Assembly: GCA_964035575.1 (NCBI GenBank)
Contig: OZ037833.1
Span: 1,426,001-1,490,000 of the forward strand
Length of the DNA: 64,000 nucleotides
Source of the DNA: Rhynchopus sp. YZ270_cl-10
Taxonomy: Eukaryota
Direction of reading: 5' to 3'
This document shows, in pieces, positions 22,316 to 55,819 of the stretch. Both the position numbers and the translations under genes were made by a program. The notes beneath the pieces are model-generated. The model saw only the letters and a list, made by a program, of their open reading frames with translations. It was not told where the DNA came from and searched no databases. Position 1 is the stretch's first letter. The number at the start of each line of letters is the position of its first letter.

Positions 22316-22387
22316 AGGCCGCTGTGGGGATTGAACCCACGACCCCATCATTACGGATGATGTGCTCTACCACTGAGCTAAACAGCC
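22316..22387 (-). tRNA. tRNA-Thr: tRNA-Thr(CGU), C33
   Basis: Cloverleaf, loop TCCGTAA. Confidence 0.9.
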
Positions 22388-22463
22388 ACATTTTAGGGAG
22401 CAAGGTGTGAAAGCTCTGAGAACCAATTTACACAGGAGAAACAAATCAGAAGAAAAAAAACTG

Positions 22464-22535
22464 TGGACCCTGAGAGGTTCGAACTCTCGGCCTCCCGTAT
22501 GCGGAACGGGCGCTCTTCCACTGAGCTAAGAGCCC
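22464..22535 (-). tRNA. tRNA-Ala: tRNA-Ala(CGC), C33
   Basis: Loop TCCGCAT, G3:U70. Confidence 0.92.
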
Positions 22536-22611
22536 CACAATTATGATGATTCTTTAAAACAACAAGCTTTGGGCGAAAATAGTTTTAGATGATCACACAA
22601 CGAAGAAAAAG

Positions 22612-22693
22612 TGACGAGGGTGAGGTTTGAACTCACGCCCCCGAAGAGACTACGACCTGAACGTAGCGCCTTAGACCACTCGGCCACCTCGCC
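22612..22693 (-). tRNA. tRNA-Leu: tRNA-Leu(CAG)
   Basis: Loop TTCAGGT, long variable arm. Confidence 0.95.
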
Positions 22694-22814
22694 TTACTAG
22701 GCTTCTTCGTTAAAAATTTTTTCACCATTGCGGAGGTATGAAGGAAATTTTTGATGCGTGCTCTGTACATTTCAAAAGACCCCCTTCAAAGAAAAGAAGA
22801 TGGAGAGAAAGCAT

Positions 22815-22887
22815 GGCGCTATAGCTCAGTGGTTAGAGCGCTCGCCCAGTAAGCGAGAGGTCGAGGGTTCGATCCCCTCTAGTGCCT
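22815..22887 (+). tRNA. tRNA-Thr: tRNA-Thr(AGU), C33
   Basis: Loop CCAGTAA. Confidence 0.92.
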
Positions 22888-22971
22888 TGTTTTTTGTTCA
22901 CTGTTCTATTTCTAGTCCGTTGTTAGGTCACAAACAACCTGTTCACATGTTGTCCACCATGACTCAGTATT

Positions 22972-23090
22972 GGATTCGGCCATACTCTGGTGAATACACC
23001 TCATCCCGCCTGATTTGAGAAGTTAAGCACCAGCAGGCCTGGATAGTACTGGCGTGGGTGACCAGCTGGGAAGTCCGGGTGCTTGAATCC
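22972..23090 (+). rRNA. 5S: 5S rRNA
   Basis: Same as 21636-21754. Confidence 0.96.
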
Positions 23091-23139
23091 TTTTTACTAT
23101 TTTTTACTGAAGCACAAAGTTGTTCTGGATTGCTCACAC

Positions 23140-23720
23140 AGGATCAAAAACGCGAAAACGTTGGGAATATGTGTTATTTGGGTGCTCCTGAATGCATTAT
23201 GAGGTTGGACGATTTGATTGGAGCATCAGAAGTGCCCTGATCGATTTGGCGAAAATGACCCAGTAAACTGTCTTTTTTGCCTCTATTCTGCAATAGCAAA
23301 AATGGCCAAAAACGCAAAAACGTTGGGAAAATGGGTTATTTGGGCGCTCCTGAATGCATTGTGATGTTGTAACCACAAATTGGAGTATCACACATATCCT
23401 CAGTGAAACATGGAATTTTCCCATTTTTCACCGGATATTTCGTAACAGCAAAAATGGTCAAAAACGCGAAAACGTTGGGATAATGGGTTATTCGGCTGCT
23501 CCTGAATGCATTATGATGTTGTAAACGCAAATTAGAGCATCAGAAGTGTCCTAATCGAGGTGGCTAAAATGACCCAGCAAAATGTCATATTCACCGCTAT
23601 TCTGCAATAGCCAGATCGTCAAAAATGGGAAACTAACGGGAAAATGGGATGTTTGGATGCTCCTGAATCCATTATGAAGTCGTAACCGCAAATTGGAGCA
23701 TCACACATCATGCCCTAATC
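23140..23720. repeat. ~150-bp degenerate repeat related (inverted) to 19935-21290
   Basis: Recurring aacgttggga..tgggttatt..gctcctgaatgcattatga..ggagcatca. Confidence 0.8.
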
Positions 23721-23796
23721 ACTTACTCCCAGTGAAAATTTATTTGGGATGTGTGGAATGTACAGGACTTCCCCCTGCACAGCAAAAAGGCAATAA

Positions 23797-23878
23797 CGCG
23801 GACGGCAGGATTTGAACCTGCGCGGGCAGAGCCCAATGCATTTCGAGTGCACCTCCGTAACCACTTGGATACGTCCGC
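23797..23878 (-). tRNA. tRNA-Ser: tRNA-Ser(CGA)
   Basis: Loop CTCGAAA, long variable arm. Confidence 0.95.
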
Positions 23879-23957
23879 TACTGTTCCTTTGCAACTTCTG
23901 GAGGAGTCACGAAAGACGAGGAGAACTGAACAAGATTCATCGAACAAAAAAAGGCTT

Positions 23958-24030
23958 TGCTCCCGGCGGGGTTTGAACCCGCGATCCCAGGCTCATAAGA
24001 CCTGTGCCTTAACCACTAGGCCACGAGAGC
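23958..24030 (-). tRNA. tRNA-Ile: tRNA-Ile(UAU)
   Basis: Loop CTTATGA. Confidence 0.92.
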
Positions 24031-24056
24031 GTCGAGCCCTTTTATCCCTTGATAAG

Positions 24057-24127
24057 GCGACCGTGGTCTAGTGGCATGATGGACCCCTCCCAAGGGTTCG
24101 ACCCGGGTTCGATTCCCGGCGGTCGCA
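24057..24127 (+). tRNA. tRNA-Gly: tRNA-Gly(CCC)
   Basis: Loop CTCCCAA. Confidence 0.93.
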
Positions 24128-24177
24128 TAGCCTTTTTTAAGCCGGGCATGTAGAAAACATTGTTGGAAGTAATTAGA

Positions 24178-24250
24178 AGCAGAGTGGCGCAGTGGTCAGC
24201 GCGGTGGGCTCATAACCCACAGGTCATAGGATCGAAACCTATCTCTGCTA
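24178..24250 (+). tRNA. tRNA-iMet: Initiator tRNA-Met(CAU)
   Basis: A1:U72, GGG/CCC anticodon stem, ATCGAAA T-loop. Confidence 0.95.
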
Positions 24251-24351
24251 GATAACCTTTTTCGATGAACCCATTTTTTTGACCTGAAAAAAATTTTTTG
24301 CACACCAAAAAAAAGTTGGTCAGACCCTTGCCAACATCTCACTAAGTTTGG

Positions 24352-24424
24352 GCAGCTATCGTCTAGTGGTTAGGACGTCCGCCTTACACGCGGAAGATCG
24401 CTGGTTCAATCCCAGCTAGTTGTA
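24352..24424 (+). tRNA. tRNA-Val: tRNA-Val(UAC)
   Basis: Loop CTTACAC. Confidence 0.94.
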
Positions 24425-24516
24425 CTTTTCATTTTTGAATTTCCTTCACAATTTTTTACAGGTGGTGTTGACTGTGATGGGACACTTCCTTAAAGCGAGA
24501 AAAGAATATGAAACAA

Positions 24517-24589
24517 GCCCCATTGGCGCAATGGATAGCGCGTTGGACTTCTAATCCAAAGGTTGTGGGTTCGAGTCCCACATGGGGTA
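24517..24589 (+). tRNA. tRNA-Arg: tRNA-Arg(UCU)
   Basis: Loop CTTCTAA. Confidence 0.95.
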
Positions 24590-24704
24590 ATTCTTTTCTT
24601 TGTTTTTTATTTTTCAGATTCGGTGCGATTGAAGACTTTCTCTGGACGCATTCTTTTTAAAAACAGGCTTCATTGTATCCTCGGTAGTATAGAGGTCAGT
24701 ATTT

Positions 24705-27133
24705 GGCGACTCACCAGTACAGAATGGTGGAATCCAGCACAGAATGGTGACCCAAAAACCAGCACAGAATGGACGGACTCAGACTTGACCCACTTACAGG
24801 CCAAAAAAAATTTTTCTACACAAAAAATTTTTTTTTTCACAGAGCAAGATTTTTGAGAAAATTTTTCAGGCCAAAACTTTGTCTAACCTGAAAATGACAA
24901 AAAGTTTCACCTACACCAGCCAGTTAACACAACCTAGAACCAGATAACGCTGCCCGAACCCCGCGCACCCGCACAACCACACGAACCAGCTAGTGACCGC
25001 AAACCCGCGCACCCGTCAACCCGCAAACCCGCACAACCACCAGCCAGATAACGCAACCTAGAACCAGTAGGTTCCCGCACACCCGCACCCAAGAGCCAGC
25101 TTATCGACCACACGAACCAGCTAGGGACCGCAAACCCGCGCACCCGTCAACCCGCAAACCCGCACAACCACCAGCCAGATAACGCAACCTAGAACCAGCA
25201 GGGTCCCGTGCACCCGCACCCACCAGCCAGCTTATTAACCACACGAACAACAAAAACTGCACCCTCTGGGGTTTGAACCTCCGACCAGTAGTAATATGTA
25301 GTGTGCGGAACCTGTGTGGTAACCACTAGGACACTATCTCTACTTTAATGGAAATCCTTATTGCTGACGAAGCATCCAAGTGGGCACCACAAGGGTTGTT
25401 CACATTCTATTTTCCCAGTGGTCGGAGGTTCAAACCCCAGAAGCAGCAGTTTTTGTTTCCCCTAACAAATCCTTAAGGAAAAGTGAATTATGGATTGCTA
25501 AGGATTTCCCAGCCATTCCATTCTGTGCTGGTGTTTCAGAAAAGTGCACTTTTTCGTTACGAACCAAAAAAGTGCACTTTTCTGAATCACCAGCACAGAA
25601 TGGAATGGCTGGGAAATCCTTAGCAATCCATAATTCACTTTTCCCTAAGGATTTGTTAGGGGAAACAAAAACTGCTGGTTCTGGGGTTTGAACCTACGAC
25701 ACCGAAGAAACTCTTATGTTTGGAATCTGTGTGCTACACACTGGGACACTTAGTCCGCCTTAGTGAAAATCCTTATGCAAGACAAAGTATCCAAGTGAGT
25801 ACTACACAGGTTCCGTGCACTGTATGAAATTGGTGGTCGGAGGTTCAAACCCCAGAACCAGCAGTTTTTGTTTCCCTTAGCAAATCCTTAAGGAAAAGTG
25901 AATTATGGATTGCTAAGGAGTTCCCAGCCATTCCATTCTGTGCTGGTGTTTCAGAAAAGTGCACTTTTTCGTTACGAACCAAAAAAGTGCACTTTTCTGA
26001 ATCACCAGCACAGAATGGAATGGCTGGGGAATCCTTAAGGATCCATAATTCACTTTTCCCCTAGCAAATCCTTAGGGAAAAGTGAATTATGGATTGCTAA
26101 GGATTTCCCAGCCATTCCATTCTGTGCTGGTGTTTCAGAAAAGTGCACTTTTTTGGTTCGTAACGAAAAAGTGCACTTTTCTGAAACACCAGCACAGAAT
26201 GGAATGGCTGGGAAATCCTTAAGGATCCATAATTCACTTTTCCTTAAGGATTTGTTAGGGGAAACAAAAACTGCTGGTTCTGGGGTTTGAACCTACGACA
26301 CCGAAGAAACTCTTATGTATGAAACCTGTGTGCTACACACTGGGACACTTAGTCCGCCTTAGTGAAAATCCTTATGCAAGACAAAGTATCCAAGTGAGTA
26401 CTACACAGGTTCCGTGCACTGTATGAAATTGGTGGTCGGAGGTTCCAACCCCAGAACCAGCAGTTTTTGTTTCCCTTAGCAAATCCTTAAGGAAAAGTGA
26501 ATTATGGATCACTCAGGATTTCCCAGCCATTCCATTCTGTGCTGGTGTTTCAGAAAAGTGCACTTTTTTGGTTCGGAACGAAAAAGTGCACTTTTTTGAA
26601 ACACCAGCACAGAATGGAATGGCTGGGGAATCCTTAAGGATCCATAATTCACTTTTCCTTAAGGATTTGTTAGGGGAAAAGTGAATTATGGATTGCTAAG
26701 GATTCCCCAGCTATTCCATTCTGTGCTGGTGTTTCAGAAAAGTGCACTTTTTGGTTCGTAACGAAAAAGTGTACTTTTTTGAAACACCAGCACAGAATGG
26801 AATGGCTGCGGAATCCTGAGCAATCCATAATTCACTTTTCCTTAAGGATTTGTTAGGAGAGGAAAAAAAACTCCTGACCCGGGTATTGAATTTCGGATCA
26901 TTTTCTCAGTCAAAATGCCAGCACAGAATGGAAACGAAAAGCCAGTACAGAATGGAAATCAAAAATTTTCTGAAAAACCAGCACAGAATGGAAACGAAAA
27001 GCCAGCACAGAATGGAACACGGCTATAAGGCTCCGACTATTCCATTCTGTGCTGGTTTTTCGTTTCCATTCTGTGCTGGTTTTTTTGGGCCCATTCTGTG
27101 CCAAATTTTGCGGGCCTGTACTGGAGGATGGCC
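24705..27133 (+). mobile_element. Non-autonomous TIR DNA transposon, element A (2429 bp)
   Basis: Ends GGCGACTCACCAGTACAG / CTGTACTGGAGGATGGCC; TSD CAGTATTT at 24697 and 27134; subterminal CCAGCACAGAATGG repeats. Confidence 0.93.
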
Positions 27134-27141
27134 CAGTATTT

Positions 27142-28414
27142 GGCCATACTGACTTACATGGTTATGGGAAAACTTACATGTTTATGGAAAAAACTGACTT
27201 ACATGTTTATGAAAAACATGACTTACATGTTTATTAAGCCGGGGATTTTTGTGTACAAATAAACATGTAAGTCATGTTTTTCATAACCATGTAAGTCATG
27301 TTGAGATTTTTGCCGGTTCATAACCATGTAAGTCATGTTTTTCATAAACATGTAAGTCAGTTTTTTTTTGAGGTCAGGTCGACATTCAATACCCGGGTCG
27401 GGAACATATTTCTGCCACTTAGCCAAAAACTGACTTGTCTCGGGGGTTGAACCCGCTACCATAAGAAAAATTTTACCTGCGTGGTAACCACTCGGCTACA
27501 CTGTCTCATACTTCTCACACAGTTTTTCTGAAGAGGTCCTGACCAAATGCGGGTTCTAGGTTACGTTATCTGACTGGTGGTTGTGCGGGTTTGCGGGTTT
27601 GCGGGTGCGCGGGTTTGCGGGTTCGAGGTTGCGTTATCTGGCTGGTGTGGTAGTGCGGGTGCGCGGGGTTCGGGCAACGTTATCTGGTTCGTGGGTTAAT
27701 AAGCTGGCTGGTGGGTGCGGGTGCGCGGGAACCTGCTGGTTCTAGGTTGCGTTATCTGGCTGGTGTGGTTGTGCGGGTGTGCGGGTTGACGGGTGCGCGG
27801 GTTTGCGGTCCCTAGCTGGTTCGTGTGGTTGTGCGGGTGCGCGGGGTTCGGGCAACGTTATCTGGCTGGTGTGGTTAATAAGCTGGCTGGTGGGTGCGGG
27901 TGCGCGGGAACCTGCTGGTTCTAGGTTGCGTTATCCGGCTGGTGTGGTGGTGCGGGTGCGCGGGGTTCGGGCAACGTTATCTGGTTCGTGGGTTAATAAG
28001 CTGGCTGGTGGGTGCGGGTGCGCGGGAACCTGCTGGTTCTAGGTTGCGTTATCTGGTTCGTGTGGCTGATAGGGTTCTCGGGGGACAGTTACTTAGCTGG
28101 CTCGTGTGCTATGTTATGTGGGTGAACACCATCAGTATCCTTCCCCACGGACTAAGGGTAAAACACTTTGCACACAGACACAAAAATTTTGCCAGAGGTC
28201 TTCATAAGAAATTTTTCACAGGCAAAAAAAAAAATTTTTTTTTCGAACGAGCTTTTTCTGAAGAAAAATTTTTTTTGTGTAGAAAAAATTTTTTGGCCTG
28301 TAAGTGGGTCAACCTGAAAATCCATAAACATGTAAGTTTCCCACCATAAACATGTAAGTCATGTTTTTCCCAAAACATGTAAGTGGATCCCAAAACATGT
28401 AAGTCATGGTCACC
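27142..28414 (-). mobile_element. Non-autonomous TIR DNA transposon, element B (1273 bp)
   Basis: Ends GGCCATACTGACTTACATG / CATGTAAGTCATGGTCACC; TSD CAGTATTT at 27134 and 28415; shares GC-rich repeat module with A in inverted orientation. Confidence 0.9.
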
Positions 28415-28570
28415 CAGTATTTCCGCCTGTCACGCGGAAGACCCGGGTTCAATTCCCGGCCGGGGAACTCTTTTTATGTGTTGTGTTTTCTTCTGTTTCT
28501 CTCTTTTTCTCCGTTTTGGTTGTCCTTTCTCATCGTTCTCATTTCATTTCTAATATAAATCTGTTGGCAA

Positions 28571-28652
28571 GGCAGGATGGCCGAGAGGTCTAAGGCGGAG
28601 GACTCAAGTTCCTTTCTCTTCGGAGGCGTGGGTTCAAACCCCACTCCTGTCA
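28571..28652 (+). tRNA. tRNA-Leu: tRNA-Leu(CAA)
   Basis: Loop CTCAAGT. Confidence 0.95.
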
Positions 28653-28761
28653 CACTTTTTTCCTTCTGTTGTCCAGAATCAATTTTTCAAGGAATCAGTT
28701 TTTTCACAATTTGTTTTTTCTGTCCACATTTTTTTGTGACACAAAATCTCGAAAAAAAGAG

Positions 28762-28833
28762 GGGCTCAGCAGGGAATCGAACCCTGGACCTCTCGCACCC
28801 AAAGCGAGAATCATGCCACTAGACCACTAAGCC
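28762..28833 (-). tRNA. tRNA-Pro: tRNA-Pro(UGG)
   Basis: Loop TTTGGGT. Confidence 0.95.
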
Positions 28834-28954
28834 TTCGTTTTGTACCCATATTCCCATTTTCTTCTGTCCAAAATTTTTTTTATTTTGACACAGTTTTGGA
28901 TTTTGGGCGGTGAATGCACACACCATCTCGTTTCTATGAACCATATAAATGTCA

Positions 28955-29028
28955 GCACCTATGGTCTAGTTGGTTATGACGCCTCGTTAACACCGAGGAG
29001 GTCTCCGGTTCAAACCCGGATAGGTGTA
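28955..29028 (+). tRNA. tRNA-Val: tRNA-Val(AAC)
   Basis: Loop TTAACAC. Confidence 0.94.
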
Positions 29029-29314
29029 CACTTCTTTTTGTGTGTTTGTTTTTTGGCCTTGTATTGCCCATTTTTTTTGGGGGTGAGAGCACATCCGCAA
29101 ACACGTGTCATAATGCTAACGTTTGCGGCTGTGCTACTCTGCCAATTTTTTTGGATTTGGTGAAAAATGGTACCAAAATCAAATCCTGGAGCGATCAGTT
29201 TTTTGTTGCCGGAAGCACATGCGGAAATGGGTGGGAATTCCTTAACATTTCCACATGTGCTTCCTTTTCAGTCCTTTCCATCTCGAACGAACTTTGATCA
29301 GTGGGAACATGAAA

Positions 29315-29620
29315 CAGACTGACTTATGTGTTATGACATAGCATCTCAGCTCAACCTGATTGCAGGCCAAAAAATAATTTTCGGCCAAAATTTTTTTTAA
29401 GTTTTTGTTGCCAGAAGCCATATGCTGAAACTTGCACAACACACAGTGAGCTGTGCGCCCACAACGGAGGGCCTGTTCTGTGCGCCCACAATGGGGGGGT
29501 GTTCTGTGCGCCCATATCGGGGTCTGCGCTGTGCGCCCGACGTACCAAAAAATTTTCGTCCAAAAAATTGGGATGTAGTAGCACAGCGCACTTTTCCAAT
29601 GTAGTAGCACAGCGCACATT
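29315..29620. mobile_element. Decayed relative of elements A/B with TGTGCGCCC repeats
   Basis: ctgactta motif and caggccaaaaaa..tttt module as in A/B; no clear TSD. Confidence 0.45.
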
Positions 29621-29657
29621 GAAAATTGTTATTAGAGTTGAGGGGAAAAAAGAGAAG

Positions 29658-29674
29658 TGCCTCCACCTGGGATT

Positions 29675-29723
<49 letters not shown>

Positions 29724-29730
29724 AAGAGGC
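29658..29730 (-). tRNA. tRNA-Phe: tRNA-Phe(GAA)
   Basis: Loop CTGAAGA. Confidence 0.95.
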
Positions 29731-29808
29731 CTTGTTTTAGGGTATGTATATTTTTTACACGGCCAACATTTTTTGAACAGGCCAAAGCCAAAGTAGTAGA
29801 AAAAGTAT

Positions 29809-29881
29809 TGGTCGTGACAGGGCTCGAACCTGGGACCGTTGGCTTATTAGACCAATGCTCTACCGACTGAGCTACACGACC
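29809..29881 (-). tRNA. tRNA-Ile: tRNA-Ile(AAU)
   Basis: Loop CTAATAA. Confidence 0.95.
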
Positions 29882-29969
29882 GACAATAATGACGAAAGGA
29901 ATCGCCAACCTGGGGTACGCACTATTTTTTTCTATTGTGCACAAAACTGTACATTTTTGCATGACATCA

Positions 29970-30590
29970 TCTTACCGATGTTCCACAATAGCAAAATGGT
30001 CAAAAATGCGAAAACCTTGCGAAAATGGGTTATTTGGGTGCTCTTGAATCCATTATGAGGTTGAACGATGTGATTAGAGCATCAGAAGTACCCTGATCGA
30101 GTTGATGAAAATGACCCAGTAAACTGCCTATTGTACTGCCATTCCACAATGGCAAAAATGGTCAAAAAGGCGAAAACGTTGGGAAAATGGGTTTTTTGAG
30201 CTCTCCTGAATGCATTATGAGGTCAGAATCGCAAATTGGAGCACCAGAAGTGCCCTGATCGAGTTGGCGAAAATGACCCAGTAAAATGACTTTTGTGCCA
30301 CCATTCCACGAATGGCAAAATGTTCAAAAATGTGAAAATATTGGGAAAACGGGTTATTCGGCTGCTCATGAAGCCATTATGAGGTCAGAATCGCCAATTG
30401 GAGCATCAGAAGTGTCCTGATAGAGTTGGTTAAAATGACCCACTAAAATGCCCATTGTACCACTATTGCGCAAGAGCAAAATGCTCAAAAATGTGAAAAC
30501 GTTGGGAAAATGGGTTATTCGGATGTTCCTGAACGCATTATGAGGTCAGACTCGCCAATCGGACCATCACACACATCCTCATCGCTAAAA
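29970..30590. repeat. ~120-bp degenerate tandem repeat of the same family as 23140-23720
   Basis: Recurring cattatgaggtcagaatcgc..ggagcatcagaagtg..aaatgacccagtaaa. Confidence 0.8.
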
Positions 30591-30689
30591 GACCCTCAAA
30601 ATCACAGGTACGACGCAATGGTGTCAGTTCATATTTTTGTGTGTTGACTGTCCCAACCAAAAAATAATCAACAAAATATGGCAAAAAAA

Positions 30690-30761
30690 TGGACATTGAG
30701 GGGTTCGAACCCTCGGCCTCCCGTATGCAGAACGGGCGCTCTACCACTGAGCTAAACGCCC
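30690..30761 (-). tRNA. tRNA-Ala: tRNA-Ala(UGC), C33
   Basis: Loop TCTGCAT, G3:U70. Confidence 0.92.
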
Positions 30762-30874
30762 CTGATAAATGTCCCTCAAGGAGAGGTACTTGGGGCACTT
30801 TCTGTTCGTCTTTTTGTCAATTTTTTTCAAGAACGCAACAAGCCTTGAAATTGACTCTTTCCTTTAAAACGAAT

Positions 30875-30946
30875 GCCCGCCTAGCTCAGCGGTAGAGCGT
30901 TGGACTTTTAATCCAATGGTCGTGGGTTCGATCCCCACGGCGGGTG
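30875..30946 (+). tRNA. tRNA-Lys: tRNA-Lys(UUU)
   Basis: Loop CTTTTAA. Confidence 0.95.
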
Positions 30947-31023
30947 CCTACTTTTTTGGATCAATTGGATTCTCTTTTTTGTGCTCATTTTCAGGATCTG
31001 GGGCGTTGTGCTTCCTCAACTAT

Positions 31024-31105
31024 GCTGACGTATCCAAGTGGTTACGGAGGTGGACTTGAAATCCACTGGGCTCTGCCCGCGCAGGTTCGAACCCTGCCGT
31101 CAGCG
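31024..31105 (+). tRNA. tRNA-Ser: tRNA-Ser(UGA)
   Basis: Loop CTTGAAA. Confidence 0.95.
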
Positions 31106-31219
31106 TTCTTTACCTTTTCGTTTGATTTCTGTGATCTATGTTTTGTCATCAAATGCAGAGATTGAAGATGTGTGTGACAAAGCTCCAAAAAATATTGAAA
31201 ACACTTGGAAAAAGAAAAG

Positions 31220-31291
31220 TTCTCCCACGCGGGTTTGAACCGCGGCTACTGGATTCAAAGTCCAGGGTGCTAACCACTACACCATAGGAGA
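31220..31291 (-). tRNA. tRNA-Gln: tRNA-Gln(UUG)
   Basis: Loop CTTTGAA. Confidence 0.94.
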
Positions 31292-31393
31292 GATAATCCG
31301 GATCCTTTTGTTCACACAACAACGATGGAAAATTTGGTGGTTGCAGGTACACACAAGTACCCCACAATGATTCTTTGATTTAAGTTAATATGA

Positions 31394-31466
31394 GCCTCCC
31401 TAGCTCAGTCGGTAGAGCGCAAGGCCCTTAACCTTGTGGTCGCGGGTTCGAGCCCCGCGGGAGGTG
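31394..31466 (+). tRNA. tRNA-Lys: tRNA-Lys(CUU), C33
   Basis: Loop CCCTTAA. Confidence 0.92.
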
Positions 31467-31692
31467 CTTTTTGTATTGATACCTGAATTTTTCTGAATTT
31501 TTTTTATTTGTTGGAAAACATGGTGTGTTGGTCGTTGTGCAATGAGCCCGCCATCGTGCGAAATCGTGCCCAAAAAAAATTTTTGGTGGTCACAATTGCG
31601 ATGATTTTTGGTGATCCCACCCAGACCAAATCGCACTAACTAAGTTGTTAAGCAAAGTACAAGCTTCGTCCTAAGTACTGACAGGTAATTAA

Positions 31693-31774
31693 GCGGACGT
31701 ACCCAAGTGGTTACGGGGCTCGCCTGCTAAGCGAGTGTGCTCTGCATGCGCAAGTTCGAACCTTGCCGTTCGCG
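31693..31774 (+). tRNA. tRNA-Ser: tRNA-Ser(GCU)
   Basis: Loop CTGCTAA. Confidence 0.95.
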
Positions 31775-32027
31775 TTTTTTATACACTGCATTGATACCTT
31801 TTTTCATTCTTTTCTGAACTTTTTCAAACTCAAAAAAAAACCTGAAAAAATCTGTTTTATCTTCAGGTCAAGAATCTCCAAGTTAGGACAACATTCAAGA
31901 TGTTTGGTTTTTTTGGTGAGACAACCTTGGAAATCCTGAACAATAGTTTCAACATCAAGATGACACACAACTTGGGTTTTTAGCTCAAAATCAAAAATAG
32001 AGTCAAAAACTCAAAAAAATGAAAAAT

Positions 32028-32100
32028 CTCCTCCTGTTGGGTTCGAACCAACGACCTGCAGGTTAACAGCCTGACGCGCTACCGACTGCGCCAAGGAGGA
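32028..32100 (-). tRNA. tRNA-Asn: tRNA-Asn(GUU)
   Basis: Loop CTGTTAA. Confidence 0.95.
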
Positions 32101-32214
32101 TCTGATTGTTAGCGAAGACAGCATTTACATGGGGACCTTATTCAAAACGAAAACACACACAAGGAATGATGGAAACTTATGGCCTTGGTACGAAGAGAAT
32201 GCGAGAGAATTCGT

Positions 32215-32286
32215 GGCTCGGTGGTCTAGTGGCATGATTCTCGCTTAGGGTGCGAGAGGTCCGGGGTTCAATTCCCCGCCGAGCCC
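32215..32286 (+). tRNA. tRNA-Pro: tRNA-Pro(AGG)
   Basis: Loop TTAGGGT. Confidence 0.95.
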
Positions 32287-32383
32287 TTGTCTTTTTGGAT
32301 TTTCATTTTTATTTATTTTTTCGTTTGAAATTCCGTGTTCCTTGCACAAAAGTACCCTTTTTGGATTGTGCCTAAGTATCACC

Positions 32384-32455
32384 TCCCCTTTAGTACAGTG
32401 GTTAGTATACCTGGCTTTCACCCAGGCGACCCGGGTTCAAACCCCGGAGGGGGAA
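32384..32455 (+). tRNA. tRNA-Glu: tRNA-Glu(UUC)
   Basis: Loop CTTTCAC. Confidence 0.95.
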
Positions 32456-32592
32456 TCCTTTTTGATTGCTTTCAAATTTCGGAGCTGTTTTTTGATATTT
32501 TCATATTTCTGAATTTTCAATTTGGCAAAGTTTTGTGACAAGAAATCTCTGAGAAGGAGGAAATCTAAAAATATTTTGGAATGAACAAAAAG

Positions 32593-32664
32593 TACTCGCG
32601 GCGGGGATCGAACCCGCAACCTCCGGCGTCGGGAACCGACGCGCTTCCATTGCGCCACGCGAGC
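32593..32664 (-). tRNA. tRNA-Arg: tRNA-Arg(CCG), C33
   Basis: Loop TCCCGAC. Confidence 0.88.
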
Positions 32665-32889
32665 TTATCTTGTTTCCCAAGATCTCAGATTATGGAGAAG
32701 GTTTGGCAGTGTCTAAAAAAGTTCAAAAAGTGATAAAACAGCCAGTGTCCCTTGGTGCATGACTGGTTGTACTGTGGTGGACCCGTGCACTTTCCATACA
32801 GTCCTATGCCAGAAAACCCACACACAATGGGTTTGTGGGTTTTCTACATCCACTGTACCTGTGCATAAGATAACCCATCGTGAAACTCC

Positions 32890-33655
32890 CTTGTGCACCC
32901 GACATACCACCCCTGGCCATATTGGTCAGGCATATTAGTAAGGGTACCTGGTCAGATCTGACCAGGCACCTGGTCACAGTGACTGGGCACAGTAGGAACC
33001 ACAGCTGAAATGGGTGGGGGCTTAAAGCCGTGTTCCAGCATGTGGTTCCTCTTTAGGTCCCAGCATGTAGTACACCCGACATACCACAGCCCAGGCCATA
33101 TTGGTAAGGCATATTAGTAGGGGCACCTGGTCACAGTGACTAGGTAGGTGCACAGAGTGGTTCCTAATCGGGCGCACAGGGGGATATTCCTAATCGGGCG
33201 CACAGGGGGGTAAAGCTAACCGGGCGCACAGGGGGATTCCTAATCGGGCGCACAGGGGGTCGGCCCGCAAACCTGATGATCATATTACCTCTGACCAGCG
33301 CACCGGCCATACTGACTTACATGTTTATTTACTGGGAATTTTGTGAAGAAATAAACATGTAAGTCAGGTTGGGTTTATGAACCTGTTGTAGTCCTAACCT
33401 GACTTACATGGTTATGAAAAACCTGACTTACATGGTTATTAACCCAGGGAATTTTGTGAACAAATAAACATGTAAGTCAGGTTTTTCATAAACACGTAAG
33501 TCAAGCCAAAAACATGTGGCCATACTGACTTACATGTTTATGAACTGGGATTTTTGTGAATAAATACACATGTAAGTCAGCATGGGTTTATAAACATGAT
33601 CATCAAATTTTTTTTCGATTGTGACGGAAGTTGTGACTGAACTGACTTACCATGT
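32890..33655. mobile_element. Decayed repeat/transposon complex including element-B-type end at 33305
   Basis: GGGCGCACAGGGGG repeats, then GGCCATACTGACTTACATG and multiple TGACTTACATG motifs. Confidence 0.6.
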
Positions 33656-33819
33656 CGAGCAAAAACCCGCATCAGACAAAAAAAAAATTTCTCCACTAAG
33701 AATCCTTACGCAAGAAAGAGTACACATCATTTCCACTTTTTCGTTTTGAACGAGTTTGTGACCGACCTGAAACCGTCCGAAACCATATTGTTTTGCTTTT
33801 TCCAATCGCAAAAAGAGAG

Positions 33820-33890
33820 TGCGTAATCCGGGAATCGAACCCGGGCCGACCCCGTGGCGGGGGGCCATTCTACCACTAGACCAATTACGC
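33820..33890 (-). tRNA. tRNA-Gly: tRNA-Gly(GCC), C33
   Basis: Loop CCGCCAC. Confidence 0.9.
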
Positions 33891-34006
33891 TACGATATTA
33901 GTCGAAATTGTGCTCGAGTTGCCGCTCGTTGCATGGTTGAAAAATATTTCACAATATCCCTCGAAATAAAACCCTTTCTGAGATCCCAATAAGTGGGAAT
34001 ATTCAA

Positions 34007-34078
34007 GCGGTTATGGTTTAGTGGTTAGAACACCCGTTTGTGGCACGGGAGACCCGAGTTCAATTCTCGGTAACCGCT
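34007..34078 (+). tRNA. tRNA-His: tRNA-His(GUG)
   Basis: Loop TTGTGGC. Confidence 0.94.
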
Positions 34079-34166
34079 TTTTTAGCTGTACAATCAACCG
34101 TCTAAATTTTTTTTCAACTCCAAAAATATGCAGGCCACATAAAAAATACTATTGCCTAAAGACATG

Positions 34167-34238
34167 GACCGTGTGGCTCAATGGAAGAGCGCCTGACCAC
34201 GGATCAGGCGGTTGCAGGTTCGAGTCCTGCCACGGTTG
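34167..34238 (+). tRNA. tRNA-Arg: tRNA-Arg(ACG), C33
   Basis: Loop CCACGGA. Confidence 0.92.
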
Positions 34239-34327
34239 CTTCTTTTTTTAGGCAATTTGAAGAATTTGAAATTATTTTCATTTTGAAATCGCCCCTCACA
34301 AAGAAAACACTTTGCATGAAAGTAACA

Positions 34328-34399
34328 GCACTTATGGTATAACGGTTAGTATTCTCGCCTTCCAAGCGAGCGGCCCGGGTTCGACTCCCGGTAAGTGCA
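34328..34399 (+). tRNA. tRNA-Gly: tRNA-Gly(UCC)
   Basis: Loop CTTCCAA. Confidence 0.95.
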
Positions 34400-34687
34400 G
34401 TTCTTTTTTTAAAGGGGGAAGCAAAATTTTCATGTTCAGAAAATTTTTTCTGAAATGTCAGCTTTTCAAAGAATTTCCAGTTTTCAAGTTTTTCCTTCAA
34501 AAATTTTTCAAGGTTCTTATGGGTGGGTTGACTACCAAAAAATCCAAAATCCCGGGGTGACCCCTTCCCACTGGACCCAATGTTTTTATCTGTTGTGACT
34601 GTAACTTGTCACTGTAATTCATTTGACACCAACCTCTCACTTTTTTGTGTTTTCAAAAAAGTTCAAAAAAACAATGTTCAAAAAGTT

Positions 34688-34760
34688 AACCCCGTGCGGG
34701 ACTCGAACCCGCAACCTTTGGATTCGAAGTCCAACGCGCTATCCATTGCGCCAACGGGGC
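34688..34760 (-). tRNA. tRNA-Arg: tRNA-Arg(UCG)
   Basis: Loop CTTCGAA. Confidence 0.95.
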
Positions 34761-34822
34761 CTGATTTGATTTTCATCAGAAAAGAAACGAAACAATGAGT
34801 GGGAGCCCTGTACAAAAAAGAA

Positions 34823-34894
34823 TTCCCCGGCCGGGAATTGAACCCGGGTCTTCCGCGTGACAGGCGGAAATACTGACCTCTATACTACCGAGGA
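34823..34894 (-). tRNA. tRNA-Asp: tRNA-Asp(GUC), intact (empty allele of 62868)
   Basis: Loop CTGTCAC. Confidence 0.95.
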
Positions 34895-34993
34895 TACAAT
34901 CTTCACTCTGATTTATTTTCGCGGATTAAAATGGTCTAAAATGAGCACAGAAATGACGAAAATGCATGAAAATTTGTGAACAAAAAAATGAAT

Positions 34994-35075
34994 CGCAGTC
35001 GGCAGGACTTGAACCTGCGCGGGCAGAGCCCAATGGATTTCTAGTCCACCTCCGTAACCACTTGGATACGACTGC
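34994..35075 (-). tRNA. tRNA-Ser: tRNA-Ser(AGA)
   Basis: Loop CTAGAAA. Confidence 0.95.
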
Positions 35076-35153
35076 TGTAATTCTCACCGTTCTTTGTTTT
35101 TAGGCAGTCATCTGTTTGCAGAAAATAATCTGGAACACGAAAACGAAAAAAAA

Positions 35154-35237
35154 TCCTCTCGGCCGGAATCGAACCAGCGACCGCTCGATAACCGAGTATT
35201 CTACAGTCGAGCGCTCTACCAATTGAGCTACGAGAGG
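35154..35237 (-). tRNA. tRNA-Tyr: tRNA-Tyr(GUA) with 11-nt intron (35190-35200)
   Basis: CTGTAG|AATACTCGGTT|ATCGAG at canonical 37/38 position. Confidence 0.93.
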
Positions 35238-35361
35238 TTCTACAACTGTCATTGTTTTCACAGAAGCCCATAAAATTTTTTGGCTCAAAAAAATTTTTTT
35301 GCCACACAAACCTGTAGAAATTTGCACCCCATGTATTTCTTAATGATACGATAATATCAAG

Positions 35362-35434
35362 GCGAGGTTGGCGCAGTCGGGAGCGCGTAGGTCCCATAAT
35401 CCTAAGGTCGTCAGTTCGATCCTGGCACCTCGCA
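35362..35434 (+). tRNA. tRNA-Met: Elongator tRNA-Met(CAU), C33
   Basis: Loop CCCATAA, TTCGATC T-loop. Confidence 0.9.
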
Positions 35435-35519
35435 CTTTTTTGTGTGTCTTTTTCCTTTGTGTGGGATTTTCAGCAAAATTTCCACCTTCATGCTAAACGC
35501 ATTGAAGCCCTAAATCATG

Positions 35520-35590
35520 GGCCCTATGGTGTAGCGGTAGCACTATGGATTCCAAATCCATCAACGGCGGTTCGATTCCGTCTAGGGTCA
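35520..35590 (+). tRNA. tRNA-Trp: tRNA-Trp(CCA)
   Basis: Loop TTCCAAA, 5-bp anticodon stem. Confidence 0.93.
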
Positions 35591-35672
35591 TTTCTTTTTT
35601 TACACACTTTCCTTTCTGTGTTGTCTTGAAAAACTTCTTCGCAGGAGAAACAGCAAAAGCATCTTAATCAGC

Positions 35673-35744
35673 GGCGATTTAGCTCAGTGGCAGAGCATTG
35701 GTCTTGTAAACCAAGGGTCGGGGGTTCGATCCCCCCAGTTGCCT
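35673..35744 (+). tRNA. tRNA-Thr: tRNA-Thr(UGU)
   Basis: Loop CTTGTAA. Confidence 0.95.
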
Positions 35745-35841
35745 TTCTATTTTTTGGTGATGTGATGTGATGTGGTTGTGCTGAAGAAGCAGCAACTGAG
35801 CACTGGATGTGACAGGCAGGAACGCAGAAGGGAGATGGCCT

Positions 35842-36249
35842 GGCCGTACTCCAGTACAGGCCCGAGCGAGTGCTCACAGAATGGGCTCCAAAAACCAGCA
35901 CAGAATGGAATGGCTGGAGACTTATAGGCTTACTGTAAGGATTTGTTAGGAGTGGAAAAAAAAACTCCTGACCCGGGTATTGAATTTTCAGATCATTTTC
36001 TCAGTCACAATGCAAGCACAGAATGGAAACGAAAAACCAGCACAGAATGGAATGGCTGGAGTCTTATAGCCGTGTTCCATTCTGTGCTTGGTTTTGGTTT
36101 CCATTCTGTGCTTGCATTGTGACTGAGAAAATGATCCGAAAATTCAATAGCCAGGTCAGGAGTTTTTCCATCTGAATTATGGATTGCTAAGGATTTCCCA
36201 GCCATTCCATTCTGTGCTGGATTCCACCATTCTGTACTGGTGAGTCGCC
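35842..36249 (-). mobile_element. 408-bp MITE-like derivative of element A
   Basis: Ends GGCCGTACTCCAGTACAG / CTGTACTGGTGAGTCGCC; no 8-bp TSD, not inside a tRNA. Confidence 0.85.
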
Positions 36250-36559
36250 AAGAAGCGGCAGCTGAGCACACTGGACATGCCCAGAAAGGAGATAAGTTGT
36301 GGGGCTGAAACGTGCTATCCCCAGCAAAAGGGTCTGGCACTTTTCGCGAGTGGAAGCAGTTCACACCTGGTTGAACGCAAAACCTACACCGGTCGGTGGG
36401 AGTCCTGTGTTGGTTCGGAAAACACATATTTTCACCCAAATTCCACTCTCAACTTGCCAACGAAACAGAACTGAGATCAAGTGGAGGAAATATTTTTTGG
36501 TTTTCATTTGCCTCAAAATCTCAGAAACCTGCAAAATCGTAAACATTCAAAAAGAAAAG

Positions 36560-36632
36560 CACCTCCCGCGGGGCTCGAACCCGCGACCACAAGGTTAAGG
36601 GCCTTGCGCTCTACCGACTGAGCTAGGGAGGC
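36560..36632 (-). tRNA. tRNA-Lys: tRNA-Lys(CUU), C33
   Basis: Loop CCCTTAA. Confidence 0.92.
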
Positions 36633-37027: not shown

Positions 37028-39536
37028 GGGCTCAGCAGGGAATCGAACCCTGGACCTCTCGCACCCGAAGCGAGAATCATGGCGACTCACCAGTACAGAA
37101 TGGTGGAATCCAGCACAGAATGGTGACCCAAAAACCAGCACAGAATGGACGGACTCAGACTTGACCCACTTACAGGCCAAAAAAAATTTTTCTACACAAA
37201 AAATTTTTTTTTTCACAGAGCAAGATTTTTGAGAAAATTTTTCAGGCCAAAACTTTGTCTAACCTGAAAATGACAAAAAGTTTCACCTACACCAGCCAGT
37301 TAACACAACCTAGAACCAGATAACGCTGCCCGAACCCCGCGCACCCGCACAACCACACGAACCAGCTAGTGACCGCAAACCCGCGCACCCGTCAACCCGC
37401 AAACCCGCACAACCACCAGCCAGATAACGCAACCTAGAACCAGTAGGTTCCCGCACACCCGCACCCAAGAGCCAGCTTATCGACCACACGAACCAGCTAG
37501 GGACCGCAAACCCGCGCACCCGTCAACCCGCAAACCCGCACAACCACCAGCCAGATAACGCAACCTAGAACCAGCAGGGTCCCGTGCACCCGCACCCACC
37601 AGCCAGCTTATTAACCACACGAACAACAAAAACTGCACCCTCTGGGGTTTGAACCTCCGACCAGTAGTAATATGTAGTGTGCGGAACCTGTGTGGTAACC
37701 ACTAGGACACTATCTCTACTTTAATGGAAATCCTTATTGCTGACGAAGCATCCAAGTGGGCACCACAAGGGTTGTTCACATTCTATTTTCCCAGTGGTCG
37801 GAGGTTCAAACCCCAGAAGCAGCAGTTTTTGTTTCCCCTAACAAATCCTTAAGGAAAAGTGAATTATGGATTGCTAAGGATTTCCCAGCCATTCCATTCT
37901 GTGCTGGTGTTTCAGAAAAGTGCACTTTTTCGTTACGAACCAAAAAAGTGCACTTTTCTGAATCACCAGCACAGAATGGAATGGCTGGGAAATCCTTAGC
38001 AATCCATAATTCACTTTTCCCTAAGGATTTGTTAGGGGAAACAAAAACTGCTGGTTCTGGGGTTTGAACCTACGACACCGAAGAAACTCTTATGTTTGGA
38101 ATCTGTGTGCTACACACTGGGACACTTAGTCCGCCTTAGTGAAAATCCTTATGCAAGACAAAGTATCCAAGTGAGTACTACACAGGTTCCGTGCACTGTA
38201 TGAAATTGGTGGTCGGAGGTTCAAACCCCAGAACCAGCAGTTTTTGTTTCCCTTAGCAAATCCTTAAGGAAAAGTGAATTATGGATTGCTAAGGAGTTCC
38301 CAGCCATTCCATTCTGTGCTGGTGTTTCAGAAAAGTGCACTTTTTCGTTACGAACCAAAAAAGTGCACTTTTCTGAATCACCAGCACAGAATGGAATGGC
38401 TGGGGAATCCTTAAGGATCCATAATTCACTTTTCCCCTAGCAAATCCTTAGGGAAAAGTGAATTATGGATTGCTAAGGATTTCCCAGCCATTCCATTCTG
38501 TGCTGGTGTTTCAGAAAAGTGCACTTTTTTGGTTCGTAACGAAAAAGTGCACTTTTCTGAAACACCAGCACAGAATGGAATGGCTGGGAAATCCTTAAGG
38601 ATCCATAATTCACTTTTCCTTAAGGATTTGTTAGGGGAAACAAAAACTGCTGGTTCTGGGGTTTGAACCTACGACACCGAAGAAACTCTTATGTATGAAA
38701 CCTGTGTGCTACACACTGGGACACTTAGTCCGCCTTAGTGAAAATCCTTATGCAAGACAAAGTATCCAAGTGAGTACTACACAGGTTCCGTGCACTGTAT
38801 GAAATTGGTGGTCGGAGGTTCCAACCCCAGAACCAGCAGTTTTTGTTTCCCTTAGCAAATCCTTAAGGAAAAGTGAATTATGGATCACTCAGGATTTCCC
38901 AGCCATTCCATTCTGTGCTGGTGTTTCAGAAAAGTGCACTTTTTTGGTTCGGAACGAAAAAGTGCACTTTTTTGAAACACCAGCACAGAATGGAATGGCT
39001 GGGGAATCCTTAAGGATCCATAATTCACTTTTCCTTAAGGATTTGTTAGGGGAAAAGTGAATTATGGATTGCTAAGGATTCCCCAGCTATTCCATTCTGT
39101 GCTGGTGTTTCAGAAAAGTGCACTTTTTGGTTCGTAACGAAAAAGTGTACTTTTTTGAAACACCAGCACAGAATGGAATGGCTGCGGAATCCTGAGCAAT
39201 CCATAATTCACTTTTCCTTAAGGATTTGTTAGGAGAGGAAAAAAAACTCCTGACCCGGGTATTGAATTTCGGATCATTTTCTCAGTCAAAATGCCAGCAC
39301 AGAATGGAAACGAAAAGCCAGTACAGAATGGAAATCAAAAATTTTCTGAAAAACCAGCACAGAATGGAAACGAAAAGCCAGCACAGAATGGAACACGGCT
39401 ATAAGGCTCCGACTATTCCATTCTGTGCTGGTTTTTCGTTTCCATTCTGTGCTGGTTTTTTTGGGCCCATTCTGTGCCAAATTTTGCGGGCCTGTACTGG
39501 AGGATGGCCAGAATCATGCCACTAGACCACTAAGCC
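37028..39536 (-). pseudogene. tRNA-Pro: tRNA-Pro(CGG) split by element A
   Basis: 3' part 37028-37080, 5' part 39510-39536; loop TTCGGGT. Confidence 0.94.
37081..39509 (+). mobile_element. Element A, copy 2 (2429 bp)
   Basis: Same ends as 24705-27133; TSD AGAATCAT at 37073 and 39510. Confidence 0.94.
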
Positions 39537-39630
39537 ACTGATTATTTTCTTCATCCAGATTTACATGATGGCGTTAATATTCAAAAGTCAGAAATTCTTC
39601 TCTCCAAAACTTGGTCTAAAAAAAGGTATT

Positions 39631-41177
39631 TTCCGCTGCGGGGAATTGGCGACTCACCAGTACAGAATGGTGGAATCCAGCACAGAATGGTGACCCAAAA
39701 ACCAGCACAGAATGGACGGACTCAGACTTGACCCACTTACAGGCCAAAAAAAATTTTTCTACACAAAAAATTTTTTTTTTCACAGAGCAAGATTTTTGAG
39801 AAAATTTTTCAGGCCAAAACTTTGTCTCACCTGAAAATGACAAAAAGTTTCACCTACACCAGCCAGTTAACACAACCTAGAACCAGATAACGCTGCCCGA
39901 ACCCCGCGCACCCGCACAACCACACGAACCAGCTAGTGACCGCAAACCCGCGCACCCGTCAACCCGCAAACCCGCACAACCACCAGCCAGATAACGCAAC
40001 CTAGAACCAGCAGGGTCCCGTGCACCCGCACCCACCAGCCAGCTTATTAACCACACGAACAACAAAAACTGCACCCTCTGGGGTTTGAACCTCCGACCAG
40101 TAGTAATATGTAGTGTGCGGAACCTGTGTGGTAACCACTAGGACACTATCTCTACTTTAATGGAAATCCTTATTGCTGACGAAGCATCCAAGTGGGCACC
40201 ACAAGGGTTGTTCACATTCTATTTTCCCAGTGGTCGGAGGTTCAAACCCCAGAAGCAGCAGTTTTTGTTTCCCCTAACAAATCCTTAAGGAAAAGTGAAT
40301 TATGGATTGCTAAGGATTTCCCAGCCATTCCATTCTGTGCTGGTGTTTCAGAAAAGTGCACTTTTTCGTTACGAACCAAAAAAGTGCACTTTTCTGAATC
40401 ACCAGCACAGAATGGAATGGCTGGGAAATCCTTAGCAATCCATAATTCACTTTTCCTTAAGGATTTGTTAGGGGAAAATTGAATTATGGATTGCTAAGGA
40501 TTCCCCAGCTATTCCATTCTGTGCTGGTGTTTCAGAAAAGTGCACTTTTTGGTTCGTAACGAAAAAGTGTACTTTTTTGAAACACCAGCACAGAATGGAA
40601 TGGCTGCGGAATCCTGAGCAATCCATAATTCACTTTTCCTTAAGGATTTGTTAGGGGAAAAGTGAATTATGGATTGCTAAGGATTCCCCAGCTATTCCAT
40701 TCTGTGCTGGTGTTTCAGAAAAGTGCACTTTTTGGTTCGTAACGAAAAAGTGTACTTTTTTGAAACACCAGCACAGAATGGAATGGCTGCGGAATCCTGA
40801 GCAATCCATAATTCACTTTTCCTTAAGGATTTGTTAGGAGAGGAAAAAAAGCTCCTGACCCGGGTATTGAATTTCGGATCATTTTCTCAGTCAAAATGCC
40901 AGCACAGAATGGAAACGAAAAGCCAGTACAGAATGGAAATCAAAAATTTTCTGAAAAACCAGCACAGAATGGAAACGAAAAGCCAGCACAGAATGGAACA
41001 CGGCTATAAGGCTCCGACTATTCCATTCTGTGCTGGTTTTTCGTTTCCATTCTGTGCTGGTTTTTTTGGGCCCATTCTGTGCCAAATTTTGCGGGCCTGT
41101 ACTGGAGGATGGCCGGGGAATTGAACCCCGGTCTGCCGGGTGAGAGCCGGCTGTTCTAACCACTATACTACAGCGGA
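39631..41177 (-). pseudogene. tRNA-Glu: tRNA-Glu(CUC) split by element A in the B box
   Basis: 3' part 39631-39647, 5' part 41115-41177; loop CTCTCAC. Confidence 0.93.
39648..41114 (+). mobile_element. Element A, shorter copy (1467 bp)
   Basis: Same ends; TSD GGGGAATT at 39640 and 41115; fewer internal modules. Confidence 0.93.
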
Positions 41178-41267
41178 TCTGATAGTAGGCAAAACTATTA
41201 TCTGCATGGGGACATCTTTTCGATCGTTGCATTGAACGAAAATGTGAAGGAAAGTTCAAAAAGAAAT

Positions 41268-41340
41268 TACAGCTAGTCGGGATTGAACCGACGATCTCTC
41301 GCGTGTGAGGCGAGCGTCCTAACCACTAGACGATAGCTGC
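41268..41340 (-). tRNA. tRNA-Val: tRNA-Val(CAC)
   Basis: Loop CTCACAC. Confidence 0.95.
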
Positions 41341-41404
41341 TACAATAATGACCGGAACTGTTTTCCACAAGAGGTGGGTTTTCTGCGGAAAAATGGTAAT
41401 AACG

Positions 41405-41486
41405 TGACGAGAGTGGGGTTTGAACCCACGCCTCCGAAGAGACCAGGGCCTAAACCTGGCGCCTTAGACCGCTCGGCCATCTCGCC
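41405..41486 (-). tRNA. tRNA-Leu: tRNA-Leu(UAG)
   Basis: Loop TTTAGGC. Confidence 0.95.
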
Positions 41487-41545
41487 TTCCCAGTTTTTTC
41501 TGACTTTTGCAAAGAACAGAAAATGGTTTGAGAAGGGAAAAAAGT

Positions 41546-41618
41546 CTCCTCCTGTTGGGTTCGAACCAACGACCTGCAGGTTAACAGCCTGACGCGCTAC
41601 CGACTGCGCCAAGGAGGA
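41546..41618 (-). tRNA. tRNA-Asn: tRNA-Asn(GUU)
   Basis: Loop CTGTTAA. Confidence 0.95.
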
Positions 41619-41707
41619 CCTGACAAGTGTGCTTTTTGTGTTTTGCACAATCTTGAAAACAAAACAAAAGGGATAGATTGAAAATGAAAATGAAAAAGAA
41701 TAACAAG

Positions 41708-41789
41708 TGACGAGAGTGGGGTTTGAACCCACGCCCCCGAAGGGACCAGGGCCTTAACCTGGCGCCTTAGACCACTCGGCCATCTCGCC
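41708..41789 (-). tRNA. tRNA-Leu: tRNA-Leu(AAG)
   Basis: Loop TTAAGGC. Confidence 0.95.
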
Positions 41790-41882
41790 TTCAATAAAAG
41801 CCAACAAGAATATGGAAGTGGGAATGCGTTTCAACCAGTCACAGAGGAGAATAACAAGGGACGAAACGGAGAAAAAGGAAAG

Positions 41883-41954
41883 TTCTCCTACGCGGATTCG
41901 AACCGCGGTCGCGAGATTCAGAGTCTCGAGTGCTAACCACTACACCATAGGAGA
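41883..41954 (-). tRNA. tRNA-Gln: tRNA-Gln(CUG)
   Basis: Loop CTCTGAA. Confidence 0.94.
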
Positions 41955-42045
41955 TACAATTCTGTCGCTTCCTTCTTTTTCTTTGGTACCAAAAAGAATT
42001 GAGATCTGGAAATATCACAACAGTGTTTCCAAGCCAAAAAATGTT

Positions 42046-42118
42046 TGGAGATTGAGGGTATCGATCCCTCTACCTCTCGCATGCTGAGCGAGCGCTCTAC
42101 CATTTGAGCTAAACCCCC
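42046..42118 (-). tRNA. tRNA-Ala: tRNA-Ala(AGC), C33
   Basis: Loop TCAGCAT, G3:U70. Confidence 0.92.
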
Positions 42119-55793: not shown

Positions 55794-55819
55794 GTCGAGC
55801 CCTTTTATCCCTTGATAAG

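Follow-up and report, generated by a model that had tools for sequence, protein, structure and literature searches.

Why would a nucleus encode cytidine, in one tRNA gene after another, at the position of the anticodon loop where uridine is expected? U33 is near-invariant in elongator tRNAs (PMC5041475, PMC9023262) and makes the contacts of the U-turn (PMC5041475); whether U-turn geometry or recognition by enzymes accounts for its conservation is debated. Where reviews name exceptions, C33 is confined to initiator tRNAs, and G33 is noted for Candida (PMC9023262). The question is raised by a stretch of 64,000 nucleotides (nt) from Rhynchopus sp. YZ270_cl-10 (contig OZ037833.1, positions 1,426,001 to 1,490,000), here called the window, in which a tandem array of tRNA genes contains ten tRNA species with C33. 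Together with related arrays from metagenomes, these genes show that U33 has ceased to be invariant in the nuclear tRNA genes of a whole lineage, and that the trait is not a quirk of ten genes.

By ARAGORN's count the window has 76 tRNA genes, 45 of them in a full tandem unit of 31,763 bp that runs from one tRNA-Thr(CGU) gene to the next and holds 45 tRNA species (unit 1, 22316–54078), and 31 in a partial second unit (54079–62806). In unit 1 C33 is found in 11 of the 45 calls, which amounts to 10 of 43 distinct intact species, or 10 of 45 once the insertion-split Pro-CGG and Glu-CUC genes, both with T33, are counted; against a 3% background of non-U33 tRNAs (taken from PMC11096365) the latter share has p = 7e-7. 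The minus strand carries tRNA-Thr(CGU) (22316–22387, C33 at 22356), tRNA-Ala(CGC) (22463–22535, 22504), tRNA-Ala(UGC) (30690–30761, 30730), which is alone among the U34 tRNAs of this species in having C33, tRNA-Arg(CCG) (32592–32664, 32633), tRNA-Gly(GCC) (33819–33890, 33859), the second copy of tRNA-Lys(CUU) (36559–36632, 36600) and tRNA-Ala(AGC) (42046–42118, 42086). On the plus strand lie tRNA-Thr(AGU) (22815–22887, 22847), the first copy of tRNA-Lys(CUU) (31394–31467, 31426), tRNA-Arg(ACG) (34167–34239, 34198) and the elongator tRNA-Met(CAU) (35362–35435, 35394). All ten species have a 7-nt anticodon loop on a stem of 4–5 pairs, and both species and loops are exactly those listed in a first-pass annotation of this DNA. 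The initiator tRNA-Met (24178–24250, plus strand; A1:U72, A54), for which the same annotation had claimed U33, serves as an internal control: it has T33 at 24210, as has every other gene of unit 1. The recurrence of C33 in unit 2, likewise claimed, holds for all eight species covered there (C33 at 54119, 54267, 54610, 58775, 59471, 60678, 61904 and 62243), each letter-identical to its unit-1 copy.

The simplest account of such genes would be that they are pseudogenes or sequencing errors, with U33 copies elsewhere doing the work. The scope here is the unit in the window, so U33 copies could lie elsewhere in the genome, and in three cases a relative described below has both position-33 versions of one anticodon. 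The genes themselves give little sign of decay. A and B boxes are present in all ten species and a T-run terminator lies downstream of all 11 loci, their Rfam scores (53.8–67.1 bits) fall within the range of the T33 genes, and each C33 gene is the unit's sole gene for its anticodon (for Lys-CUU, both copies have C33). Folding of the ten genes does not decide the matter: the acceptor stem forms in every minimum-energy structure, but several arms are misfolded, which is common for unmodified tRNA.

Public sequencing data provide an independent look at part of the array. Among 24 runs listed, 20 contain part of 28500–36400 (seven with at least half of the words) and none is recorded as RNA. Contigs of four runs were aligned to 22230–22960, a region that covers three of the ten C33 genes, with the proviso that contigs drop rare variants. 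Run X3, which may itself be the source of the window, spans all 30 of the 30 bins in this region; with matches accepted down to 80% likeness, none of 22356, 22504 and 22847 shows an alternative letter at the 5% level. The one change listed for X3 falls at 22503, in the first base of the anticodon, and is consistent with contigs of Ala-UGC placed on Ala-CGC, with C33 kept. Run X17 has different flanks and thus represents another organism; its Thr-CGU gene shows no other letters and its Ala pieces leave position 33 unchanged. Two further runs were left out, X10 with short pieces bearing 5–7 other letters, and X11 with short pieces in foreign flanks and low-depth matches. With the absence of a U33 variant at or above 5% in X3 at three of the genes, the promoters, terminators and identical unit-2 copies, and the conservation of C33 gene bodies across lineages, pseudogenes or errors are a very improbable explanation, in agreement with the first-pass annotation.

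To which lineage does the trait belong? The window is likely of diplonemid origin, because its spliced leader (SL) resembles the Diplonema type. In the full tandem unit neither a gene for tRNA-Leu(UAA) nor one for selenocysteine (Sec) tRNA was found. One of 14 SL RNA genes lies at 45575–45701 on the minus strand (ends approximate) and serves as a lineage marker; its 40-nt exon, followed by a GT donor, differs from the 'Diplonema sp' consensus in supplement file 1 of PMC3795323 by one added base and one substitution. A euglenid host was considered and dropped on the same match of the leader. Relatives were picked from metagenomes by the C33 pattern of the Ala anticodon arm, a selection that favours C33 and gives no estimate of its share among diplonemids. 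The 59 loci retrieved comprise 15 dense eukaryote-type arrays, 37 prokaryote-type Ala-GGC genes with C33 and seven loci without a matching tRNA call. In the 15 arrays the tRNAs are interspersed with 5S, small nuclear RNA (snRNA) and signal recognition particle (SRP) RNA genes. In two of them, L021 and L028, the leader agrees with the same 'Diplonema sp' consensus, and the 5S genes of these two are only 77–82% like that of the window. Merged by shared spacers, the arrays form ten groups (L007–L058) with 229 distinct genes, 223 of them non-Sec.

Position 33 of these 223 genes reads C in 102, T in 119, A in one and G in one, with C33 shares of 22–62% per group; without the pattern-selected Ala families the count is 83 of 202. 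The trait is thus lineage-wide, as the first-pass annotation had suggested. Its picture of ten special C33 species does not go far enough: each lineage has a different C33 set, and 36 of 47 tRNA species show C33 somewhere. The two purines, A33 in an Arg-UCU gene (L015, 95–167) and G33, accompanied by G38, in a Thr-UGU gene (L024, 785–856), each occur on a single contig; they may be errors or decaying copies, and both genes were excluded from the position-by-position comparison and treated as missing in the change counts.

The same search pattern also turned up C33 outside eukaryotes. Metagenomes repeatedly contain a tRNA-Ala(GGC) of prokaryote type whose loop reads U32-C33 (37 of L001–L059; L062–L077), and some of these genes stand beside other C33 genes in phage arrays (L003 and L050, the same contigs as L060 and L061). 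In a viral collection the pattern matches two contigs, and among 185,579 prokaryote genomes it matches 16 stretches, which are scattered over unrelated metagenome-assembled genomes.

How does a base that is near-invariant elsewhere behave when it is released? Across 42 tRNA families present in at least three groups, position 33 varies in 30, and positions 32, 37, 38, 53–56, 58 and 61 vary in none. Its pairwise difference is 0.361, against 0.082 for the next of the 46 positions compared, and it contributes 180 of all 561 pairwise differences. In aligned syntenic stretches, where the locus pairs share loci and one of eight pairs gave no 200-base alignment, 12 of 48 position-33 sites differ (11 by transitions), compared with 321 of 1636 spacer sites (0.196) and 59 of 3621 other tRNA sites (0.016). 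Three disjoint pairs give 6 of 38, 263 of 1442 (0.182) and 25 of 2876 (0.009), respectively. At least 54 changes at position 33 are needed over 33 of 41 non-Ala families, on a tree that is weakly supported (40–93%). Neither an invariant class of families (log-likelihood −130.47 both ways) nor rate variation between families improved the fit. That tRNA genes have moved from T to C in general was rejected, since T55 is retained in 221 of 221 resolved genes. Pyrimidines occupy position 33 in 221 of the 223 relative genes. The DNA site behaves almost neutrally between T and C, and purines are nearly excluded.

Rapid turnover could also signal positive selection, with C33 protecting the anticodon loop against nucleases that cut tRNAs, or against elements targeting tRNA genes, in an arms race that drives the exchange of T and C. 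Transitions at position 33 are at or above the spacer level (11 of 48 versus 144 of 1636), and tRNA genes in the window have been struck by insertion elements. Set against this, the excess is small in the three disjoint pairs (5 of 38 versus 127 of 1442), and one rate over all families fits the changes, whereas tRNA-cutting nucleases are usually anticodon-specific. We know of no attacker of this kind, and an adaptive origin of C33 is improbable.

The reading we lean towards, with modest confidence, is that C33 is turned into U at the RNA level by a deaminase acting on tRNAs at large, which frees the DNA site to be T or C. Such a putative enzyme would act on the anticodon loop of the pre-tRNA before wobble modification, and the mature tRNA would retain both the U-turn and the U33 recognition element. 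With the site masked, T-to-C mutations could drift in and out, family by family, which would leave each lineage with a C33 set of its own. Editing is favoured because the release is specific to position 33 with its neighbours fixed, because the rate there resembles that of spacer, and because only C replaces T, C being the one base that a deaminase can turn into U; moreover, since the release is family-wide, one masking step is simpler than separate relaxations. It also has precedents in the C8-to-U8 editing of Methanopyrus kandleri by CDAT8 and the C32-to-U32 editing of trypanosomes. Candidates for the enzyme would be an ADAT2/3-Trm140-type deaminase, a C-to-pseudouridine editor resembling TrcP, or a cytidine deaminase carrying a THUMP domain, as CDAT8 does. 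Diplonemids are listed with an expanded THUMPD3-like family, which serves as a lead only. Diplonema papillatum has ADAT2/3 homologs (PMC10161547), and enzymes for positions 32 and 34 exist in related protists (PMC6382703, PMC12699882).

Modification enzymes that read U33 offer a further handle on the problem. According to PMC11096365, U33C abolishes human Elongator activation and the formation of mcm5U34 in yeast, and the t6A enzymes of yeast and E. coli are described as rejecting C33 (PMC8887486). We considered that C33 avoids tRNAs with U34 or GUN anticodons because their modifiers need U33, and rejected this: it appears only as a trend in the window (p = 0.064) and is contradicted by the relatives, where C33 occupies 28 of 45 non-Ala U34 genes and is found in Glu-UUC in four of four groups, Lys-UUU in four of four and Gln-UUG in five of six. 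In the relatives' GUN tRNAs C33 is low (4 of 20). That C33 is common before U34 in the relatives, while human and yeast Elongator needs U33, is another reason for favouring editing.

The chief alternative dispenses with editing: mature tRNAs would keep C33, and the ribosome, ELP3, KEOPS and TGT would all be indifferent, letting T and C drift. TGT needs U33. That need was not documented in PMC10639084. Several observations speak for such tolerance or weigh against the deaminase. C33 is rarer in the window's U34 and GUN tRNAs (1 of 17 versus 9 of 28), as tolerance predicts. C is slightly short of spacer GC, in the window (7 of 40 versus 0.35, p = 0.03) and in the relatives (the 83 of 202 given above, versus 0.52), and some selection for T33 may remain. 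C33 was never seen in eight families present in three to eight groups, namely Asn, Gly-CCC, Phe, Pro-UGG, Sec, Ser-GCU, Trp and Tyr. A change confined to pyrimidines is also compatible with loop geometry. Tolerance has precedent as well, because yeast tRNA-Leu(GAG) works with C33 at little functional loss, as reported in a preprint (bioRxiv 10.64898/2026.02.20.707122), and human and nematode KEOPS accept C33 (PMC8887486); phage tRNA arrays with several C33 genes (L003 and L050, the same contigs in the viral collection) point in the same direction. The dependence of ELP3 on U33 is a human and yeast result that may not hold for the diplonemid enzyme. Finally, eight matches to 'deaminase' in the gain/loss table of D. 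papillatum include no gain of a tRNA deaminase; Elongator and queuine terms had no match in that table.

Tolerance has difficulties of its own. Several independent relaxations would be needed at once, a spacer-like rate would imply almost no fitness cost, and the dependence of human and yeast Elongator on U33 is at odds with the many C33 genes among the relatives' U34 tRNAs. We regard tolerance as possible but doubtful. The first-pass annotation had offered editing or lineage-wide tolerance as a pair; the lineage-wide part stands, and between the two the comparative data tilt towards editing.

How does C33 compare with known systems? In M. kandleri, CDAT8 edits C8 to U8 in 30 of 34 tRNAs (reviewed in PMC6382703). 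What the two cases have in common is that many tRNA genes of a single lineage have C in place of a U that is structurally near-invariant; the share is lower here than in M. kandleri. The differences are that the site is 33 and not 8, T8 being conserved here (40 of 40 resolved window genes with three unresolved, 188 of 188 resolved relative genes with 35 unresolved), that the organism is a eukaryote, and that the trait, known here from DNA alone, affects 22–62% of genes per lineage with rapid turnover of T and C. Judged by the genes, the trait is most like CDAT8 editing and yet not a member of that system, as the position differs. In trypanosomes, tRNA-Thr undergoes C32-to-U32 editing by ADAT2/3 with Trm140 (PMC6382703). 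This precedent, invoked by the first-pass annotation, is real, and it shares with our case the euglenozoan lineage, the anticodon loop and, presumably, the C-to-U direction. It concerns a different position, however: there a single family is edited at a site that is normally C or U, whereas here most tRNA species are affected and position 32 is fixed. Natural C33 tRNAs, such as the initiator tRNA-Met of animals and plants and yeast tRNA-Leu(GAG), likewise have C33 encoded in the gene, but each is a single species, in contrast to the elongators of most families here, where the window's initiator keeps U33. No prior report of C33 in diplonemids was found in the literature searched, which took in only a minority of subscription journals and did not extend to Additional file 1 of PMC10161547, a file that may mention C33. 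Among the papers listed, PMC7694415 mentions diplonemids in other contexts, and two papers on trypanosomatid tRNA genes (PMC2695483, PMC12204681) contain no passage on position 33.

Editing at the neighbouring base has been suggested before. D. papillatum lacks tRNA-Leu(UAA), and C34-to-U editing has been proposed for it (PMC10161547). Genes for Leu-UAA, Leu-UAG and Val-UAC were not found among the relatives' 229 genes, the arrays being incomplete, and Ile-GAU occurs in relatives where the window has Ile-AAU; these features may indicate unusual wobble decoding or C34 editing. The fuller proposal is that diplonemids possess a tRNA-wide C33-to-U editor. Such an enzyme would give the first case of editing at position 33 and would parallel CDAT8 in a eukaryote; under it the most conserved base of the anticodon loop would have become the fastest-evolving site of the tRNA gene, and it may also make tRNA-Leu(UAA) from tRNA-Leu(CAA). 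From the gene comparisons, we consider this proposal evenly balanced between right and wrong.

The array is of interest in its own right. A single tandem unit combines a near-complete tRNA set with 5S, SL RNA and snRNA genes, and in relatives (L021, L037, L040) 45 tRNA genes are packed with 5S, U6 and SL in 5.5 kb; trypanosomatid tRNA clusters hold 2–10 genes each. The non-tRNA genes of unit 1 are 5S, SL RNA, U1, U2, U4, U5 and a U3-like gene, of which 5S, U2, U4 and U5 are called by Rfam and the U1 and U3-like matches fall below Rfam cut-offs. Rfam places U6 and SRP RNA to the left of unit 1 and gives no match to 18S rRNA in the window. One ARAGORN 'Ser' call becomes Tyr-GUA with an 11-nt intron when introns are allowed. 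The branch-point-pairing region of U2 (7464–7654, 14739–14929, 44691–44881) reads GUAUUA, where GUAGUA is usual, and the relatives keep GUAGUA in seven of seven copies. A short reversed 5S-like fragment (21490–21560) lies ahead of the 5S gene at 21636.

The array is interrupted by insertion elements at 24705–27133, 27142–28414, 37081–39509, 39648–41114 and from 62921 onwards, with a short copy at 35842–36250; their inverted ends are imperfect and their target duplications measure 8 bp. Of the main element's five copies, all but one have landed inside tRNA genes. In unit 1 the insertions split Pro-CGG, Glu-CUC and the Asp gene, the last by two tandem elements at a single site; in unit 2 they split the other tRNA-Asp copy, so that the broken genes differ between units. 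An assignment to Dada was rejected, as Dada elements have 6–7-bp duplications and no terminal inverted repeats (PMC3706591). An open frame of 151 amino acids on the minus strand (6184–6636 and 13456–13911) had no Pfam match when the frame at 6184–6636 was searched; its appearance suggests a retroelement remnant.

What the locus reveals is a eukaryotic lineage without the U33 constraint at the DNA level across most of its tRNA families, and C33 is accordingly unsuitable as a criterion for pseudogenes in these protists. If the mature tRNAs have U, the lineage would possess a new nuclear tRNA-editing pathway together with a new site-specific deaminase. If they keep C, its ribosome and modification machinery would work without U33, and these organisms would provide a natural test of the role of this base.

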